In this document: one piece after another, positions 10,843-16,357 of the stretch
Layout: each line of letters opens with the position of its first letter
Position numbering within the stretch: position 1 is the stretch's first letter
NCBI GenBank assembly: GCA_965277805.1
Contig: OZ255842.1
Location: forward strand, 352,001 to 416,000
DNA from: Candidatus Lustribacter sp.
GTDB taxonomy: Bacteria > Vulcanimicrobiota > Vulcanimicrobiia > Vulcanimicrobiales > Vulcanimicrobiaceae
DNA length: 64,000 nt
Reading direction: 5' to 3'
The notes under the pieces: model-generated
What the model was told of the DNA's origin: nothing
Database searches by the model: none
What the model saw: the letters and a program-made list of their open reading frames with translations, nothing else
Translations under genes and position numbers: made by a program

Positions 10843-11868
10843 ATGCCAATCATCGATGCCCACGCGCACGTGAGCGTTCCCTCGGAAGTCTGGGCGTATA
10901 AAGCCGGCCTGCTCTCGCACCGCGGCGCGCACGGCAATCGCGGCCCGAAACTGAGCGACGACGAACTGATCGAGGCCTACCACAAGAAGGAGATGGCGCC
11001 GGTCGGACATCTCGAGTCGATGAAGCTCAACCAGATCGACGTCCAGCTGATTTCGCCGCGGCCCTTCCAGATGATGCACAGCGAGAAGTTCAAGCTCGTG
11101 CAGTGGTTCACCGAAGAAATCAACAACATCATCTACCGCGACACGCAGCTCTTCCCGGGCCAGTTCTACGGCGTTTGCTCGATGCCGCAAGCCGCCGGCG
11201 AGCCGATCGAAAAGTCGCTGCCCGAACTCGAGCGCTGCATCAAGGAACTCGGTTTCGTGGGCACGCTGCTCAACCCCGATCCCTACGAGAACACCGGCAC
11301 CGAAGCGCCGCCGCTCGGCGACAAGTACTGGTACCCGCTCTATGAGAAGCTGTGCGAACTCGACGTGCCGGCGCACATCCACGGCACGACCTCGCATTCC
11401 GAGCGCACGCCCTACACGCTGCACTTCATCAACGAAGAGACGATCGCGGTCTACGGCCTGATCAACTCGAACGTATTCAAGGATTTCCCGACACTGAAGA
11501 TCGTAGTCTCGCACGGCGGCGGCGCGATCCCGTATCAGTTCGGGCGCTTCCAGTCGGGCTCGATGCGCAACCCGCCCGGTCAGCGCTTCAGCGACGGGCT
11601 GAAGAAGCTCTACTTCGATACGGTGCTCTACACCGAATCGGCGATGAAGCTGCTGGTCGAAGTAATGGGTCCCGACAACCTCGTCTTCGGCGCGGAATGC
11701 CCGGGTGTCGGTTCATCCGTCAATCCCGACACGAACCACACCTTCGACGACATCGTGCCCTTCATCCAACGCATGGACACGCTCGACGACACGCAGCGTC
11801 AAAACATCCTCGAAAACAACGCCCGCCGCCTCTACAAAATCCCCGCCGCGAAGCCCGCCCTCGTGTAA
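10843..11868 (+). CDS. Amidohydrolase-2 protein, 4-oxalomesaconate hydratase (LigJ)-like
   Basis: IIDAHAH, SPRPFQMMH, ELERCIKELGFVG..LNPDP, WYPLYEKLCELDVPAHIH, SHGGGAIPY. Confidence 0.82.
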   Translation: MPIIDAHAHVSVPSEVWAYKAGLLSHRGAHGNRGPKLSDDELIEAYHKKEMAPVGHLESMKLNQIDVQLISPRPFQMMHSEKFKLVQWFTEEINNIIYRDTQLFPGQFYGVCSMPQAAGEPIEKSLPELERCIKELGFVGTLLNPDPYENTGTEAPPLGDKYWYPLYEKLCELDVPAHIHGTTSHSERTPYTLHFINEETIAVYGLINSNVFKDFPTLKIVVSHGGGAIPYQFGRFQSGSMRNPPGQRFSDGLKKLYFDTVLYTESAMKLLVEVMGPDNLVFGAECPGVGSSVNPDTNHTFDDIVPFIQRMDTLDDTQRQNILENNARRLYKIPAAKPALV

Positions 11869-11870
11869 CC

Positions 11871-11955
11871 CTGTCATCCCGAGCTTGTCGAGGGACCGCA
11901 CGAATTGTGGCGGTCCCTCGACGACGCACCTACGGTGCTTTGCTCGGGATGACAG
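11871..11955. repeat. Palindromic element, copy 2
   Basis: CTGTCATCCCGAGC...GCTCGGGATGACAG terminal IR; inner IR GTCGAGGGACCGC / GCGGTCCCTCGAC. Overlaps the 3' end of the SCO gene. Confidence 0.9.
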
Positions 11956-12679
11956 ACGTCAGTGCGGCAACTACGGCTGCCGGCTTCCAATCAGCGTTGT
12001 CGAAGAGTTGGGTTATCCGGCCGTCGGCGTTGACGACGGCGAGGCGTTCGCTGTGGACGATCGTGTCGGCGCCGGCGGAGCGTTCGAGGATGCGGAAGCG
12101 GGCGGCGAAGTCGAGGACCGTGCGCGGGTCGCCCGTTAGGAGATGCCAGCGCGCTGGATCGGCGTTGAAGAGCTTTCCATAGCGCGCAAGCACCGGCGGA
12201 CGGTCGTAGGCCGGATCGAGCGATACCTCGACCAGGTCGGCCGGCGTGCCCTTCGTGCGCGATTGCACTTGTTCGAGTTTGGCCGACACGAACGGACACA
12301 TCTTCGGATCGCGGCAGCGCGTGTAGATGAAGGTCAAGGCGTAGGGGTGGCCGTGTAAGGCGCTCAGGCGTGCGGGGCGGCCGCGTTCGTCGACGAACGG
12401 GATGTCGGGAACGGTATCGCCGGCGTTGACGAACTTCGGCAGCGTGTTTTTCTGTACGGTCGCGACGCTCGTAACGTGGAGCGCGGACAAACTCCACGGT
12501 TCGGTTTTTGTGTTGACGTCGGCCGCGATGTGATCGCCGGGATGGACGGCCGTGCCGGCGGGCACGCTGAACGTCATCGTCATCGCGGGCATGCCGTCGA
12601 AGGCTTCGTGATGCACGACGAGCGTCGTCGGGGTCAGCGTCATCAGCACGATGCCCGCCAGGTGCAGAAGATGATGCAC
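11930..12679 (-). CDS. SCO1/SenC family copper chaperone with N-terminal CusF-like domain
   Basis: VVHHEAFDGMPAMTMTF (CusF-type His/Met); TFIYTRC-x5-CP, SLDPAYD and IVHS (SCO). Confidence 0.85.
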   Translation of the reverse strand: MHHLLHLAGIVLMTLTPTTLVVHHEAFDGMPAMTMTFSVPAGTAVHPGDHIAADVNTKTEPWSLSALHVTSVATVQKNTLPKFVNAGDTVPDIPFVDERGRPARLSALHGHPYALTFIYTRCRDPKMCPFVSAKLEQVQSRTKGTPADLVEVSLDPAYDRPPVLARYGKLFNADPARWHLLTGDPRTVLDFAARFRILERSAGADTIVHSERLAVVNADGRITQLFDNADWKPAAVVAALTSVIPSKAP

Positions 12680-14290
12680 TTAGAGCACCGCGATCTTCGC
12701 CATCATTCCGCCGTCTTCATGATCGAGGATGTGGCAGTGGAACAGGAACGTGCCGCGGATCGTGGGATCGCGGAAGTCGATCAGCACCTTCATCTGCGAG
12801 GGGATGATTTGTCCCGTCACGCCGATACCGACCGGCGGCATGACCACCGTGTCGAGCCAGTGCTGGTTGGGCTGCGTCACGCCGTTGATGCTCTCGACGA
12901 TGAAGTGCGTCTGATGGATGTGGAAGTCGTGGATCTCCTGCGTATCGTTTTCGAGCGTCCACTCCTCGGTTGTGCCGGAGGCCGCGGTGAACATCGGCGG
13001 CGACGACGCGCTGTACTGCAGGCCGTTGATGTAGAACCCGTTGTCGTCCTCGGTGAAGTGCACGAGCCGCTCTTGCGCGGGCGCGGGCATCGACGAGTGA
13101 TAGTACTGCGAGTAGCGCACCGAGGCGAGCCGCTGCACGCGATGGGATTGCGTGACGGAGGTCGCGGCATTGGGCCAGTTCGTGTCGTCGGTCAGCACGC
13201 CGAGCGCGATCTCCGGGCTCGTGTCGCCGTCCGGGCCCGTCTGCACGCACTTCGAGATCAGGGCGGCCGGCGACGCCGAACCGGTGACGAGAAACTCGGC
13301 GCGCCCGGCGGGCGGAATCACGATGTCGCTCATTGCGATCGTCGCCGGCGCACCGGGATAGGTGTTGATCGGCACGCCGTCTTGCGCGACGAGCTGCAAT
13401 TGCTTGCCGTCGATAGCGAGGTCGAAGTGACGGTGGGCGGACGCGTTGACGACGCGGAAGAGTTCGGTTTCGCCGGGCTTGATCCCGATCGACGCGAGCG
13501 TTGCGCCGTTGATCATCGGCGTGGCGTCGGTTTCGGGCGAACACGCGTTGCCCCCGTTCGGCGAGTCGGCATCCTGCGCACCGCGGCGTGCGGCGCTCGT
13601 GCGGCGCACGACCGACGCGCCGCCCGAGCGGCGCAGAATCGAGCTCTCGCCGGCAGCGAACGATGAATCGTTCGGTACGTCGCCGAGAATGATCACGCGC
13701 TCGCGCAGGCCCGCCGTCTGCGGCACGACGTTGGCGATGCCTTCGACGATGATCGCGCCGGCCATACCGTTGCCGACTTCGTACGACGCGAGACCGTGCG
13801 CGTGCGGGTGGTACCAATACATGCCGGGCGGCTGATCGGGGTTGATCACGACGGTGTAGCTGACCGCGGCACCGGGCGAGGCATTGGTATCGATCGTGTC
13901 GTCGCCCGGCGCGTTCGGCGATGAGGAGAGGCCGTGGAAGTGGAGGTTGGCGTTCGAGACGACGCCGACGTCGCAAAATTCGGGCAGCTGGTTCTGGAAC
14001 GTGAGTTGGATCGTGTCGCCGGGATGCACGCGAATCGTCGGTGCGACCTGTTGGCCTTGCCAGTAGAACTCGGGGCGGCTGTTGGCATCGAACTTCGCTT
14101 GCAGCGTCAGCGATGCGACGCCGTTGACGCTGTCGACTTCGGGCAACGTGTTCAATGCGGCCGGGCCGCCGGGCACGGACACGCCGGTTGGAACCGGCGC
14201 CGGCACGGCGGACGACCCGCCCCCGCCGCACGCGATGAGGCCGAGAGCGATGATGATTGCCGCTGCAGCGGAGAGAGCAACGTAACGCAT
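12680..14290 (-). CDS. Multicopper oxidase, predicted lipoprotein
   Basis: All four Cu motifs: HFHG, WYHPH, HDFHIH, HCHILDHEDGGM. Lipobox LIA-C followed by a GGGGSS linker. Confidence 0.93.
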   Translation of the reverse strand: MRYVALSAAAAIIIALGLIACGGGGSSAVPAPVPTGVSVPGGPAALNTLPEVDSVNGVASLTLQAKFDANSRPEFYWQGQQVAPTIRVHPGDTIQLTFQNQLPEFCDVGVVSNANLHFHGLSSSPNAPGDDTIDTNASPGAAVSYTVVINPDQPPGMYWYHPHAHGLASYEVGNGMAGAIIVEGIANVVPQTAGLRERVIILGDVPNDSSFAAGESSILRRSGGASVVRRTSAARRGAQDADSPNGGNACSPETDATPMINGATLASIGIKPGETELFRVVNASAHRHFDLAIDGKQLQLVAQDGVPINTYPGAPATIAMSDIVIPPAGRAEFLVTGSASPAALISKCVQTGPDGDTSPEIALGVLTDDTNWPNAATSVTQSHRVQRLASVRYSQYYHSSMPAPAQERLVHFTEDDNGFYINGLQYSASSPPMFTAASGTTEEWTLENDTQEIHDFHIHQTHFIVESINGVTQPNQHWLDTVVMPPVGIGVTGQIIPSQMKVLIDFRDPTIRGTFLFHCHILDHEDGGMMAKIAVL

Positions 14291-14297
14291 CGGATCC

Positions 14298-15446
14298 TCA
14301 GTACGCGAACAGTAGCGATGACGAGATGATGTGGAGCAAGTTACCGTTGTAGTCGCGCTCGGCGGTTTCGAACAGCGTTAGGCGCGAGTTGGCGGAAAGA
14401 CGATAGCCGGCGCCGCCGGTGATCGAGCGCGCGAACGTCGCGCCGTTGGTCGCGTCCCAGCGCGCGATCGCGAACGCGCGACTGCCTAGCGCCTGCCGCA
14501 CTTGGAAGAAGCCGCCGCTCGTGACGAGTGCATCGCCGTACACGTCGGCCGAACTGTCGTTGCCGATCTGATAGACGCCGTCGATCTCGGTGCGGTTGTG
14601 CGCCCAGCCGAGGCCGAAACCGTTGCGCCAAAAGCGATCGGGAATGTTGCTGAAAAACGCCGAGTTATTGAACGCCGGGCCTTCGAGCGGGCGGCTTCCA
14701 TCGTAGCGATAGCTCGTGAGCCTGAACTTTCCGAGGTCGCGCTCGAGCGTCACCATCGTGTCGACGCCGTTGGACGGCAAGCCCGATTGCGTGTCGGCGC
14801 CCTTGAGGGCCGAGAGCGTCGCACCGATCTGACGCGATGGATTGCCGGCTTCCAATTCGAGGCCTTGCTTCGTATCGAAGAAGTTGAACGGGTTGCCGCC
14901 CGCGGTCTGGCTCCAGACGCCGTACGGCTGCGTCGTCTCACGGAACGTTTCCGGATCGAGCGGCAACGGCAGCGTGAATTGACCGGCGCGCAGGAGCAGC
15001 GGGAAGTTCGCGCCGTCGGGGGTGAGGCGATCGGCGAACCACGCATCGCGCACGACGCCCGGATAGCCGCCGTCGACCGCATACGGCTCGAGCCAGTACG
15101 AAGCGCGCGAACCGACCGAGCCGCCCATCAGGAACTCGACCTCGTTGACGATCGTTTTGGGCAGCGGCCCTTTGATCTCGTCGGGGTCGGCGGCGCCGGC
15201 GCTGGCGTAGTCGACCTCCACCCGGATCGCCACCGGGAAGGCCGGCTTCGGCGTGATCCCCGGGATCCGGTAACCGTTGGCCATGAATGTCTTTCCGAAC
15301 TGGGTGAGGTGGGGGACCTCGGTGTGGCACGCCTGGCACGTCAGGTTGAAGCGATGGGCGAACACGGGAATCGCCTCGGCGCGGCTCATGGTGAGCGCGG
15401 CGAACGCGACGACGGCTGCGCAGAACGGGAAGAAAGCGCGAAACAT
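14298..15446 (-). CDS. Cyc2-like monoheme cytochrome c fused to a predicted outer-membrane beta-barrel
   Basis: Signal peptide ending AEA, then IPVFAHRFNLTCQACHTEVPHLTQFGKTFMANGY (Cyc2-type PxFA...CxxCH...PxL..FG..F...GY); alternating beta-strand segments; C-terminal aromatic residue (LLFAY). Confidence 0.75.
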   Translation of the reverse strand: MFRAFFPFCAAVVAFAALTMSRAEAIPVFAHRFNLTCQACHTEVPHLTQFGKTFMANGYRIPGITPKPAFPVAIRVEVDYASAGAADPDEIKGPLPKTIVNEVEFLMGGSVGSRASYWLEPYAVDGGYPGVVRDAWFADRLTPDGANFPLLLRAGQFTLPLPLDPETFRETTQPYGVWSQTAGGNPFNFFDTKQGLELEAGNPSRQIGATLSALKGADTQSGLPSNGVDTMVTLERDLGKFRLTSYRYDGSRPLEGPAFNNSAFFSNIPDRFWRNGFGLGWAHNRTEIDGVYQIGNDSSADVYGDALVTSGGFFQVRQALGSRAFAIARWDATNGATFARSITGGAGYRLSANSRLTLFETAERDYNGNLLHIISSSLLFAY

Positions 15447-15508
15447 AGGTCTTCCTAAGCGACTGATTAGGTGATCCAACTTAGGCCGTCCTAATTAGGC
15501 ACTCCTCC
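15445..15508. promoter_or_regulatory. Array of TTAGG-N4-CCTAA boxes (DtxR/IdeR/MntR-like operator)
   Basis: ATAGGTCTTCCTAA 15445-15458, then three abutting 14-mers: TTAGGTGATCCAAC 15467-15480, TTAGGCCGTCCTAA 15481-15494, TTAGGCACTCCTCC 15495-15508. Confidence 0.7.
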
Positions 15509-15571
15509 AACCTGCTTAGAGAATTTTTAGAGCGCAGGTGCCCCCGAAGGGCTGCACCAAGGCTGCTCGCG

Positions 15572-16357
15572 ATGATCCATCGCACGCGCGCGGCCGAAAT
15601 CCGTGACCGGAAAGGTCGGCCGTTCGCGACGATCACCGCCTACGATGCGGCGTTCGGGCGCGCTGCCGAAGCCGCCGGCATCGATCTGATCCTGGTCGGC
15701 GATTCGCTCGGCAACGTCGTGCTCGGTTTTCCATCGACCGTGTCGGTGACGATCGAGGACATGGAGCGCCACGGCGCCGCCGTCGTGCGCGGTACGGAGC
15801 GCTCGCACGTATGTATCGACATGCCGTTCATGTCGTACGAAGCGTCGAATGAAGACGCGATCCGCAACGCCGGCCGGCTGATCCGCTGCGGCGCGCAGTC
15901 GGTGAAGCTCGAAGGCGGCGTCGAGCGGGCCGAACGGCTAGCGGCCGTCGCCGGCGCCGGAATTCCGGTGATCGCGCACATCGGCGTCGTGCCGCAAACG
16001 GCAGCGCTCGACCGCGGCTTCCGGCGGCGCAAGGATCGCGACCGTTTGATCGCCGACGCGGATGCGGTGGCCGCTGCCGGCGCGTTTGCCGTCGTGCTCG
16101 AGATGGTCGATGGCGACATCGCGCGCGAGATTACGCAGCGCATCTCGATTCCGACGATCGGCATCGGGAGCGGCGGCGGCTGCGACGCACAGATTCTCGT
16201 GCTCTACGATTTGCTCGGGTTCTCGGCGTTCATTCCGCCGTTTGCGAAACCGTACGTGAATCTCTTCGACGTCGTGACCGGCGTGATGCGCCACTACGCG
16301 GACGACGTCGCGGCCGGACGCGATCCCGCCGACGGACCATCGGAACGGGTGAGCTAG
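15572..16357 (+). CDS. panB: 3-methyl-2-oxobutanoate hydroxymethyltransferase
   Basis: ITAYDA, ILVGDSLG, DMPFMSY, VKLEGG, IPTIGIGSG..CDAQIL. Confidence 0.95.
   Translation: MIHRTRAAEIRDRKGRPFATITAYDAAFGRAAEAAGIDLILVGDSLGNVVLGFPSTVSVTIEDMERHGAAVVRGTERSHVCIDMPFMSYEASNEDAIRNAGRLIRCGAQSVKLEGGVERAERLAAVAGAGIPVIAHIGVVPQTAALDRGFRRRKDRDRLIADADAVAAAGAFAVVLEMVDGDIAREITQRISIPTIGIGSGGGCDAQILVLYDLLGFSAFIPPFAKPYVNLFDVVTGVMRHYADDVAAGRDPADGPSERVS

Follow-up and report, generated by a model that had tools for sequence, protein, structure and literature searches.

A Cyc2-like cytochrome-porin encoded with a multicopper oxidase in an uncultured soil Eremiobacterota bacterium: a candidate route for electrons from dissolved metals to oxygen

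Results and discussion

In a 64,000-nucleotide stretch of the 5.5-Mb genome of an uncultured soil bacterium of the Eremiobacterota (the window, to whose first letter all positions refer), we identified an operon of three co-oriented minus-strand genes that looks like a candidate route by which electrons from dissolved extracellular metals would reach oxygen directly. The first gene (14298..15446), delimited by its open reading frame and by homologue and profile searches, encodes a Cyc2-like monohaem cytochrome-porin of 382 aa; the second (12680..14290), assigned by Pfam and conserved ligands, a three-domain multicopper oxidase (MCO) lipoprotein of 536 aa; and the third (11930..12679), assigned by Pfam, a PDB match, its model and Foldseek, a CusF-like plus SCO1/SenC protein of 249 aa. 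In the reading we prefer, to which we give a probability of roughly 45%, the haem would accept electrons from Fe(II), or from a donor like it, and hand them to the MCO, which would reduce O2.

The gaps between the genes, 7 nt (14291-14297) and 0 nt in the list of open reading frames, are those given in an earlier sequence-only reading of this DNA, and such spacing indicates one transcription unit. All three genes are real, since a search with gene 1 gave 341 homologues at E ≤ 1e-3 and dN/dS is low for each of the three (0.11 to 0.19, against a relative 95 to 97% identical); the junction of genes 2 and 3 is bridged by contigs from three runs of one sample with zero differences. Ahead of gene 1, on the same strand, lies a 5' leader or promoter-proximal block (15447..15512) with TTAGG/CCTAA repeats, which is conserved in six orthologous loci while sequence farther upstream diverges. 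It holds the palindrome CCTAATTAGG (15490-15499) and a ribosome-binding site, AGGAAG (15451-15456), 5 nt before the ATG, and its core motif occurs at this site alone in the 5.5-Mb genome. RNAalifold gave a weak structure for the block (17 pairs, two with compensatory change), and an Rfam search of it returned no match.

Gene 1 encodes a predicted Cyc2-like haem-porin

Translation from the ATG at 15446 gives the 382-aa product (the alternative TTG at 15479 would give 393 aa), which begins MFRAFFPFCAAVVAFAALTMSRAEA followed by IPVFAHRFNLTCQACHTEVPHLTQFGKTFMANGYRIPG and ends SSSLLFAY. Its putative signal peptide (residues 1-25, 15372..15446), read from the sequence, has hydrophobic residues 4-20 and then AEA before I, with probable cleavage at AEA/IPV; the mature N-terminus of Cyt572, YPGFARKYNF in the excerpted text of PMC13741234, begins at the equivalent position. 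There follows a haem-binding segment (residues 25-60, 15267..15374), delimited by conservation in 27 sequences and reading AIPVFAHRF-NLT-CQACH-TEV-PHL-TQFGKTFMANGYR, in which the only CXXCH of the product, CQACH (residues 37-41, 15324-15338), would attach the haem. Invariant in all 27 are A25, I26, P27, F29, A30, R32, C37, Q38, C40, H41, P45, L47, F50, G51, F54, G58, Y59 and R60. The remainder (residues 73-381, 14301..15230, with C-terminal LLFAY) is modelled by AlphaFold2 as a 16-strand beta-barrel (mean pLDDT of the product 69.6), and its invariant columns include the loop PLPLDPETFRET at about residues 158-171. The best Foldseek matches of the model are likewise 16-strand porins, Omp32 (2fgq, 3.5e-10), OprP (2o4v) and OprO (4rjw), the latter two being the porin templates named in the Cyc2 paper (PMC8406198). 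The signal peptide, CQACH haem motif, PHL and terminal aromatic residue reported by the sequence-only reading are all present in gene 1, and the barrel fold that it suspected is borne out by model and structural matches. A CopB/PcoB identity is not supported: a Pfam search at E ≤ 0.1 returned zero families for gene 1, the CopB family included, and NCBIfam gave no match.

Set beside Cyc2 as delimited by Keffer et al. 2021 (PMC8406198), with A. ferrooxidans Cyc2, Mariprofundus Cyc2PV-1 and Leptospirillum Cyt572 as examples, gene 1 shares the signal peptide (as read from its sequence), the single CXXCH near the mature N-terminus, PXL four residues later (CQACH-TEV-PHL), then FG..F..NGY, and a 16-strand porin domain in a protein of at least 365 aa. 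It differs in the segment before CXXCH, for which those authors use AXPXFAR[Q/K][T/Y] as a screening filter: gene 1 has AIPVFAHRF, with H for R, R for Q/K and F for T/Y, and the consensus of its family is AIPVFAHRY. Because of these three differences we call the product Cyc2-like and refrain from classing it as Cyc2 proper. Its barrel is also short (382 aa in all), and its partner gene encodes an MCO in place of a cytochrome c/oxidase set.

A profile built from 27 family members reached 3121 proteins at E ≤ 1e-3, canonical-motif proteins among them, with full-length alignments to P0175 (ATPVFARQY..CAMCH, 1.4e-31), P0178 (AIPAFARKY..CNTCH, 3.9e-30) and P0185 (1.1e-25), all three of which carry the canonical motif. 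By tblastn the gene 1 protein matches 78 of 79 metagenome loci with canonical-motif genes, and canonical and intermediate forms of the motif are present among its more distant homologues. Judged by these alignments, homology of the barrel protein to proteins with the published Cyc2 motif spans its entire length, so that the Cyc2-type identity first claimed holds as homology and fails at three positions of the motif itself. We propose that the gene 1 product is a member of a divergent branch of the Cyc2 superfamily in Eremiobacterota; the authors who described the family regard what its divergent homologues do as uncertain (PMC8406198). Within what was searched, the gene 1 family is confined to Eremiobacterota, and of 113 genomes sampled from the host's taxonomic family, 110 have Cyc2-like genes. 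To our knowledge, members of that taxonomic family are not known as iron oxidisers.

The multicopper oxidase and the SCO protein

Gene 2 matches Cu-oxidase_3 (6.5e-17), Cu-oxidase (2.5e-14) and Cu-oxidase_2 (6.7e-17) in Pfam, and its copper motifs HFHG, WYHPHAHG, HDFHIHQTH and HCHILDHEDGGMM supply, beside the three cupredoxin domains, the HXH, HXH, HXXHXH and HCHXXXHXXXXM of a three-domain MCO; the copper-ligand residues are invariant in 16 sequences, in which xxCGGG is conserved too. A lipobox, LIAC (C21; 14228-14239), accompanies a Sec-type signal without twin arginine, and the protein is predicted to be lipid-anchored, in agreement with the complete four-site lipoprotein oxidase described earlier. 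Its nearest solved structures are the laccase-like MCO of Thermus thermophilus (2xu9, 1.1e-34) and CueO. CueO, PcoA and CopA typically have a Met-rich segment and a Tat signal; the gene 2 oxidase has neither (11 of 536 residues are Met, 2.1%), and with NCBIfam scores of 115.9 bits against a cut-off of 525 for the CueO equivalog and 79.9 against 478.95 for copper_res_A we rejected a CueO/CopA-type cuprous oxidase identity. Given its Sec/lipobox signal and the lack of a Tat signal, the MCO would be exported unfolded and must therefore receive its copper outside the cytoplasm. A PF03548 search of the genome did not find LolA, and the MCO may thus remain in the inner membrane, apart from the barrel.

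The GTG start of gene 3 lies in frame directly 3' of the TAA of the MCO gene. Its SCO1/SenC domain (about residues 86-240, 11960-12424) is supported by Pfam (2.3e-16; 60.4 against 22.8 bits), by a sequence match to B. subtilis Sco1 in the PDB (3.4e-12) and by Foldseek, where the best matches of the model are Sco proteins (1xzo, 4.4e-11; BsSco, human and yeast SCO1). The thioredoxin-like fold, the Cys pair before Pro and the distal His of SCO1/SenC proteins are all present; the pair is C-x5-CP and not CxxxCP, and both it and H209, which aligns with the His of B. subtilis Sco1, are invariant in seven sequences. The CusF-like domain (about residues 5-71, 12467-12667) has five modelled strands and no fold match of its own, with CusF Pfam scores below the 27-bit cut-off (20.4 in gene 3 and 26.3 in locus L056) and an HH...MPAMTM (general form HH...MPAMxM) that is invariant in the seven sequences. 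Of the proposed CusF-SCO chaperone, the SCO part is well supported and the CusF part is a candidate domain. The three copper-handling domains of the operon also fit copper homeostasis.

Such a protein would be the obvious candidate to supply the MCO with copper. In the host genome, however, gene 3 has no recognisable signal peptide, which some orthologues have and which it would need to reach the compartment of the MCO by the usual route, and the idea that the oxidase comes with its own metallation factor is weakened accordingly. Gene 3 shows an N-terminal deletion relative to L005, L007 and L056, and is under purifying selection (dN/dS 0.13 against L010). The genome encodes Omp85/BamA, LpxC, a cytochrome c assembly protein and Lgt, gene content by which the host cell appears able to build the module; in the single cultured member of the phylum, according to an excerpt of PMC9758169, the envelope is Gram-negative and includes an outer membrane.

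Linkage and possible contact of barrel and oxidase

The pairing of barrel and MCO is conserved and recurrent. An MCO gene is linked to the Cyc2-like gene in 18 of 53 related loci (16 directly downstream, two after a YceI gene), and same-strand pairs less than 800 nt apart occur in at least 18 of 201 sampled Eremiobacterota genomes, as counted among the 150 of 299 Cyc2-like matches listed. The identities of the two genes fall together, from 97/96% to 44/44%, and on the tree 14 MCO-adjacent members need four changes against a mean of 12.4 after shuffling (0 of 500 shuffles were as low). In seven of the eight loci fetched, a different Cyc2-like paralogue, with cytochrome c domains fused to the barrel, precedes an MCO of another type (about 23% identical). 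No MCO was found at any of the 79 metagenome loci with canonical-motif genes; of the 78 with a measured position, 52 extend at least 1.6 kb downstream. Most Cyc2-like copies in the phylum have no adjacent MCO, and some MCO-less orthologues (L014, L019-L022) are nested within the MCO-linked clade. Just 7 of the 18 MCO-linked loci have an SCO gene after the MCO, and its form varies; of the three-part unit put forward by the sequence-only reading, a two-part core survives.

Elsewhere in the host genome, a second locus has a cupredoxin lipoprotein gene followed by a Cyc2-like gene and, divergently, a cupredoxin-like lipoprotein gene followed by SCO1. The Cyc2-like gene of many relatives is found four genes downstream of a two-component pair; for that pair, the heavy-metal sensor kinase and regulator subfamilies rank best or near-best in NCBIfam, both below cut-off (237.5 against 292.55 and 222.3 against 279.2 bits). 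Many relatives come from assemblies with bog or SPRUCE isolate labels in their record titles.

Co-folding of the barrel and haem with the MCO scored 0.57 (runs 0.57, 0.67 and 0.50) against 0.10 for the best of three controls, with runs agreeing in at least 87% of contacts and partner pLDDT of at least 86. Among solved complexes 116 of 157 reach the pass mark, as do 2 of 215 mismatched pairs, but only 18 of those complexes, and both passing mismatches, have a passing score of 0.60 or less; 7 of 44 blindly picked neighbours also passed, and such a low pass is likelier to be wrong than right if the guess was not already probable. The co-fold hence weakly supports the contact envisaged earlier.

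Proposed electron route and alternatives

We propose that one c-type haem sits on the mature N-terminus of the 16-strand outer-membrane porin, which would accept electrons singly from a small reductant reaching the pore, most likely dissolved Fe(II). From the haem, electrons would pass to the type-1 copper of the lipid-anchored periplasmic MCO, which would reduce O2 to water at its trinuclear centre, forming a short circuit from cell exterior to oxygen that bypasses the respiratory chain. We infer both the transfer, of electrons or possibly of metal, and the substrate. Parts of such a route have precedents in excerpts of PMC13741234, namely Cyc2 to rusticyanin in A. ferrooxidans and Mco as an electron shuttle in Metallosphaera. 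The rus operon of A. ferrooxidans (Cyc2 to rusticyanin to Cyc1 to aa3 oxidase) likewise encodes an outer-membrane haem-porin with a periplasmic type-1 copper protein, and the second locus of our host, with its cupredoxin, is even closer to it; in the present operon the copper protein would itself be an O2-reducing oxidase, so that it encodes no cytochrome c, no haem-copper oxidase and no energy-conserving step. In Thioclava electrotropha, as far as the excerpted text of PMC13488337 goes, a cytochrome c-MCO operon is up-regulated in extracellular electron uptake and deletion of the cytochrome gene lowers that uptake. There too a monohaem c-type cytochrome gene directly precedes the MCO gene, though two more cytochromes follow it, unlike here, and PmcA is described as a soluble periplasmic cytochrome and not as a porin fusion.

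The operon could instead serve copper homeostasis in the manner of CopA/CopB and PcoA/PcoB, which we consider unlikely: the MCO would oxidise periplasmic Cu(I) to less toxic Cu(II), the barrel would be an outer-membrane copper channel, the CusF-like plus SCO protein would buffer or deliver Cu(I), and the haem would adjust copper redox state or be incidental. The known CopAB/PcoAB layout also pairs an MCO with an outer-membrane protein, here again with CusF- and SCO-type copper-chaperone domains, and three of the four domains handle copper (MCO, CusF-like and SCO). The ranking of CueO first and CopA-type oxidases next among NCBIfam models, though far below cut-off, and the heavy-metal-type two-component pair of many relatives, its models also below cut-off, point the same way. 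The barrel, however, lacks a CopB family match, is homologous to Cyc2-type haem-porins and carries a predicted haem whose invariant motif would be left without a role; the MCO lacks the Met-rich region and the Tat signal, no CopC/CopD, P-type ATPase or Cus genes were found among the neighbours examined, and most MCO-linked loci have no SCO/CusF gene.

Comparably improbable, in our judgement, is a porin-fed periplasmic oxidase, in which the barrel would mainly admit a small substrate for the MCO to oxidise directly at its own type-1 site, be it Fe(II) in ferroxidase-coupled uptake, Mn(II), or small phenolics and hydroquinones from peat, with the haem as plug, gate or sensor and not as electron donor. 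An MCO alone can oxidise metals and needs no haem donor, which counts against electron transfer from the barrel. The invariant charged internal loop DPETFRET is typical of a porin constriction, the bog and SPRUCE labels would suit a peat substrate, and substrate channelling explains gene linkage equally well. MCOs are documented, in excerpts of PMC11412304 and PMC9040806, as oxidases of Fe(II), Mn(II) and phenols that pass electrons straight to O2. Such feeding nevertheless leaves unexplained why haem-porins pair recurrently with two unrelated MCO types and also with cupredoxins, which are pure electron carriers without a substrate site, and why cytochrome c domains are fused to the barrel in some paralogues; the weak co-fold signal, too, favours contact. 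That the genes adjoin but share no mechanism, the porin using other periplasmic carriers with MCO and SCO genes as passengers, would fit the many Cyc2-like genes of the phylum without an MCO, the MCO-less orthologues in the same genomic context (L014, L020-L022) and the co-fold passes among blindly picked neighbours, but is very improbable given the 7-nt and 0-nt spacing, the joint move of barrel and MCO to a new genomic context in the host's lineage, their divergence together from 97% to 44% identity, and a link that arose with three paralogue groups and two MCO types.

Conclusions

We therefore keep electron transfer from haem-porin to oxidase as the preferred reading. As the respiratory chain would be bypassed, the module would serve at the cell surface to oxidise or remove Fe(II), or some other donor of single electrons, and would not conserve energy. 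The wiring of the operon would then be the Cyc2-to-copper-protein theme, with an MCO as the copper protein.

A stand-alone operon with a conserved leader

The three genes occupy the minus strand of the window, with gene 1, encoding a Cyc2-like haem-porin (382 aa), at 14298-15446, gene 2, encoding a multicopper oxidase (MCO) lipoprotein (536 aa), at 12680-14290, and gene 3, encoding a CusF-like and SCO1 protein (249 aa), at 11930-12679. Reading of these frames bore out an initial description of three co-oriented genes, separated by gaps of 7 nt and then 0 nt. Both flanking genes, a panB-like frame at 15572-16357 (so called on the basis of its translation) and a frame at 10843-11868, lie on the plus strand, divergent on one side and convergent on the other, and the trio therefore constitutes a stand-alone unit. 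The ATG at 15446, with AGGAAG just before it, is the most likely start codon of gene 1. The adjoining ~65 nt 5' of this start codon (15447-15512, minus strand) are kept in six orthologous loci, among which the sequence upstream of the block diverges. This leader contains TTAGG/CCTAA repeats, including the palindrome CCTAATTAGG, one repeat overlaps the ribosome-binding site, and a motif search placed the sole occurrence of the core motif in the genome at the gene 1 locus. The leader could act as an operator, or as a hairpin hiding the ribosome-binding site. Rfam gave 0 matches across 11800-15700, leader included, and in a consensus scan no sigma-70-like promoter appeared, while sites resembling terminators occurred at chance frequency.

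The genome comprises 5.53 Mb in a single contig, and the records of relatives are mostly labelled Eremiobacterota/Vulcanimicrobiota. Titles of 53 related loci comprised 48 Eremiobacterota-type names, four "uncultured bacterium" and one "Limnocylindria", while the seven rows with an organism label in the gene 1 homologue search carried four Eremiobacterota names, the others being Sulfotelmatobacter, Limnocylindria and Acidoferrum. In the locus titled Candidatus Limnocylindria (Chloroflexota; L016), the Cyc2-like gene, MCO and neighbours nest within the Eremiobacterota clade in typical gene context, so the record was probably binned or named wrongly.

A divergent Cyc2-like haem-porin

Gene 1 matched no family in Pfam or NCBIfam. 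Its translation begins with a signal-like segment ending in AEA, followed by IPVFAHRFNLTCQACHTEVPHLTQFGKTFMANGYR, and terminates in ...LLFAY; in a 27-member family alignment the haem segment is near-invariant, as is an internal stretch, PLPLDPETFRET. The beta-barrel character first suggested by the sequence was upheld by structure prediction: an AlphaFold2 model built on this alignment has 16 strands across residues 73-381 (mean pLDDT 69.6), and its top Foldseek matches are 16-strand porins, among them OprP and OprO, which are named as templates in the Cyc2 literature (PMC8406198). The haem segment was modelled at low confidence, as expected without haem.

Keffer et al. (PMC8406198) characterize Cyc2 by a signal peptide, a single CXXCH, an upstream AXPXFAR[Q/K][T/Y], a PXL four residues downstream of CXXCH, a length of at least 365 aa and a 16-strand porin. 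Gene 1 shares five of these six features, but has AIPVFAHRF as its upstream motif. When 1.84 billion representatives were searched with the family profile, 3121 proteins were returned at E<=1e-3 (415 at E<=1e-10), and their N-termini grade continuously from AIPVFAHRY..CQACH..PHL into AIPAFARKY..C.TCH..PKL. Alignments of the family profile to proteins with the canonical motif were full-length (E 1e-25 to 1e-31), and in tblastn the gene 1 protein matched 78 of the 79 metagenome loci that carry the canonical motif (median best E 3.8e-9), for the most part in the haem segment. Taken together, the continuum, the full-length alignments and the tblastn matches place gene 1 in the Cyc2 superfamily, where by its sequence it would belong as a divergent branch. 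The sequence-only reading of a Cyc2-type haem protein thus stands as regards homology, but because its upstream sequence departs from the defining motif we do not file gene 1 as Cyc2. The mature N-terminus of Cyt572, given as YPGFARKYNF in a review (PMC13741234), agrees with cleavage of gene 1 just before IPVFAHR.

A PDB sequence search gave nothing meaningful for gene 1 (best E 0.057), the ESM Atlas returned only "hypothetical protein" and porin clusters, and a search from the canonical-motif alignment recovered only unnamed or "hypothetical" proteins and no labelled Cyc2, the labelled rows being Ignavibacteriales-type MAGs. Against plasmids, tblastn found no match for the gene 1 protein and one match of 55 residues for the protein P0239. 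Two proteins of ~1040 aa (P0128 and P0139) combine a methyl-accepting chemotaxis protein with a Cyc2-like domain; these fusions are probably products of read-through gene calling, or else separate neighbouring genes. Gene 1 of the 97% identical relative L010 (L010:5001-6146) seems split between two frames (285 + 145 aa), which may reflect a frameshift or an assembly error.

A lipobox copper oxidase and a copper-chaperone-like protein

Pfam and alignment identify gene 2 as a complete three-domain multicopper oxidase, and its N-terminus carries a conserved lipobox (xxCGGG) with a Gly/Ser/Pro/Ala-rich tether behind it, confirming the four-site MCO with a lipobox proposed earlier. The nearest solved relatives of gene 2 are the Thermus thermophilus laccase-like MCO (1.1e-34) and CueO; it scores far under the CueO and CopA model cut-offs, and a Met-rich stretch is absent, Met accounting for 11 of its 536 residues. 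Gene 2 contains no twin-arginine motif, and we infer that the MCO, being Sec-exported, must obtain its copper outside the cytoplasm. Several MCO relatives lie in open frames of ~1040-1075 aa in other Eremiobacterota genomes (e.g., G194:C7:770568-772055 and G124:C5:1013958-1015388), suggesting fusion of the MCO to another large domain.

Gene 3 had been described as a CusF-SCO protein; the SCO1/SenC domain is clear, but the CusF-like domain is a match under the Pfam cut-off, with an invariant HH...MPAMxM site. The SCO Cys pair reads C-x5-CP in all seven gene 3 sequences. Orthologues at three related loci (L005, L007 and L056) have a normal signal peptide and an ATG overlapping the MCO stop (TGATG), while that of L029 has a lipoprotein signal and that of L031 is SCO only. 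In the window, in its 95-97% identical relative L010 and in L006, ~25 residues of the orthologues' signal peptide are missing, corresponding to an in-frame deletion of ~25 codons (window 12679-12682 and 12590-12679; L010:7771-7860; L006:5725-5770), and the GTG start of the window's gene 3 stands directly after the TAA of the MCO, in frame. An assembly error at this junction was rejected, since three runs of a single sample each yielded contigs that cross it with zero differences and a relative from another sample also has a direct junction, one base shorter, giving a TAATG overlap. A pseudogene was likewise rejected, as the frame is unbroken and a comparison of two genomes that both lack the signal peptide gives a dN/dS of 0.13 (window and L010; MCO 0.11, gene 1 0.19). 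At this ratio the short form is maintained, evidently under purifying selection. On the gene 1 tree no relative stands closer to the window than L005, yet L005 retains the gene 3 signal peptide, which suggests either two independent losses or recombination.

A proposed electron path from the cell surface to oxygen

Among the proteins encoded in the genome are Omp85/BamA, LpxC, a cytochrome c assembly protein and Lgt. A search with PF03548 found no LolA, so that either membrane may anchor the MCO; in cultured Vulcanimicrobium alpinus, the cell envelope is of the Gram-negative type and includes an outer membrane (PMC9758169). Co-folding of barrel and MCO had been suggested beforehand as a check, and was performed on barrel residues 26-382 with haem and MCO residues 45-536. 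The score of 0.57 (runs 0.57, 0.67 and 0.50) stood above a best control of 0.10, and the runs shared at least 87% of contacts with partner pLDDT of at least 86. Of 157 solved complexes 116 attained the mark, as did 2 of 215 mismatches; passing scores of 0.60 or less occurred in only 18 of the 157 complexes and in both of the passing mismatches. The model lends weak support to a contact between barrel and MCO.

We propose, with a probability of roughly 0.45, that an outside donor, probably Fe(II), would give electrons to the gene 1 haem, from which they would pass to the type-1 copper of the MCO and through its trinuclear centre to O2. Precedents include Cyc2 to rusticyanin and the Metallosphaera Mco shuttle (PMC13741234), as well as a cytochrome c-MCO operon that has been tied to electron uptake in Thioclava (PMC13488337). 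Two other readings are unlikely, and to a similar degree: one is a CopAB-like copper system, the other a porin that does no more than supply the MCO with substrate.

Linkage of haem-porin and multicopper oxidase across genomes

Among the 53 related loci, the MCO directly follows the Cyc2-like gene in 16 and follows an intervening YceI gene in 2, so that the conserved synteny anticipated for the trio holds for the porin-MCO pair (18 of 53) but extends to a SCO gene after the MCO in only 7. Identities of the Cyc2-like protein and MCO drop in step, from 97/96% down to 44/44%. In a maximum-likelihood tree of 49 Cyc2-like rows, with 7 partial rows left out, all 14 directly MCO-linked rows fall within one starred 21-row clade, the linkage needs 4 changes versus a shuffled mean of 12.4, and the YceI-linked MCO pair sits in the other main clade. 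The view that the genes are mere neighbours is very improbable. The Cyc2-like gene of relatives usually has an MBL-fold gene on one side and a tricorn-like protease gene on the other, whether or not the MCO is present, and in the window's lineage the whole trio occupies a different neighbourhood from most relatives.

Across 201 sampled genomes of the phylum, a Cyc2-like match occurs in 135, a total that takes in the unpublished G128 and G178, and in 110 of the 113 genomes of the window's family; a close relative of the MCO occurs in 61, all within that family. Same-strand pairs less than 800 nt apart were found in at least 18 of the 201 genomes, with 150 of 299 Cyc2-like rows compared. No MCO was found beside canonical AIPAFARK-type genes in 79 metagenome loci; the position could be measured in 78 of these, and in 52 of them the downstream sequence extends for 1.6 kb or more.

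The window's genome holds two further Cyc2-like paralogues. One (L002:1480-3155) belongs to a paralogue that always has a YceI-family gene directly after it; in its counterparts in L040 and L042, an MCO then follows the YceI gene. In the other (L140:4927-7727; G000:C1:5235926-5238726), a cupredoxin lipoprotein gene precedes a Cyc2-like gene with the motif AIPLFAQRY, faced by a divergent pair encoding a cupredoxin-like lipoprotein and a SCO1 protein with canonical CxxxCP; haem-porin, blue-copper lipoprotein and SCO are therefore combined twice in one genome. A different paralogue, found in eight other Eremiobacterota genomes (L141-L148), has the Cyc2-like barrel fused to cytochrome c domains in open frames of ~600 aa, and in 7 of the 8 loci fetched is followed by a second MCO type (~23% identical; signature HCHN..HMM.GM).

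More tentatively than the electron path itself, we suggest that Eremiobacteria may run a two-protein "outside-to-oxygen" short circuit, in which a Cyc2-type haem-porin would pass electrons from dissolved Fe(II), or from Mn(II) or reduced humics, directly to a lipoprotein MCO serving as a nonrespiratory terminal oxidase. Different porin paralogues and two MCO types would then have come together in such a module on three or more occasions.

Implications for Eremiobacteria and for Cyc2 as a marker

Cyc2 is a marker gene in use for microbial iron oxidation, and Eremiobacteria form an uncultured lineage that is abundant in acidic soils and peat. FeGenie annotation has already yielded Cyc2 homologues from Eremiobacterota, and on such calls Eremiobacterota have been labelled predicted iron oxidisers (PMC8357290, PMC13594681). 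Full-text searches turned up no description of a Cyc2-type porin encoded with an MCO. The Eremiobacterota Cyc2-like proteins appear to be a divergent branch with copper proteins as conserved partners, one of them an enzyme able to reduce O2 alone, and the two-gene porin-MCO core is small enough for a direct test by heterologous expression. If the wiring is real, these very common soil and peat bacteria would oxidise metals at the cell surface independently of the respiratory chain, and the reading of Cyc2 matches in metagenomes would change. Should the short circuit prove true, Cyc2 counts in metagenomes would not equal lithotrophic iron oxidation, and cytochrome-to-MCO wiring would be a general route, so far overlooked, by which microbes oxidise metals.
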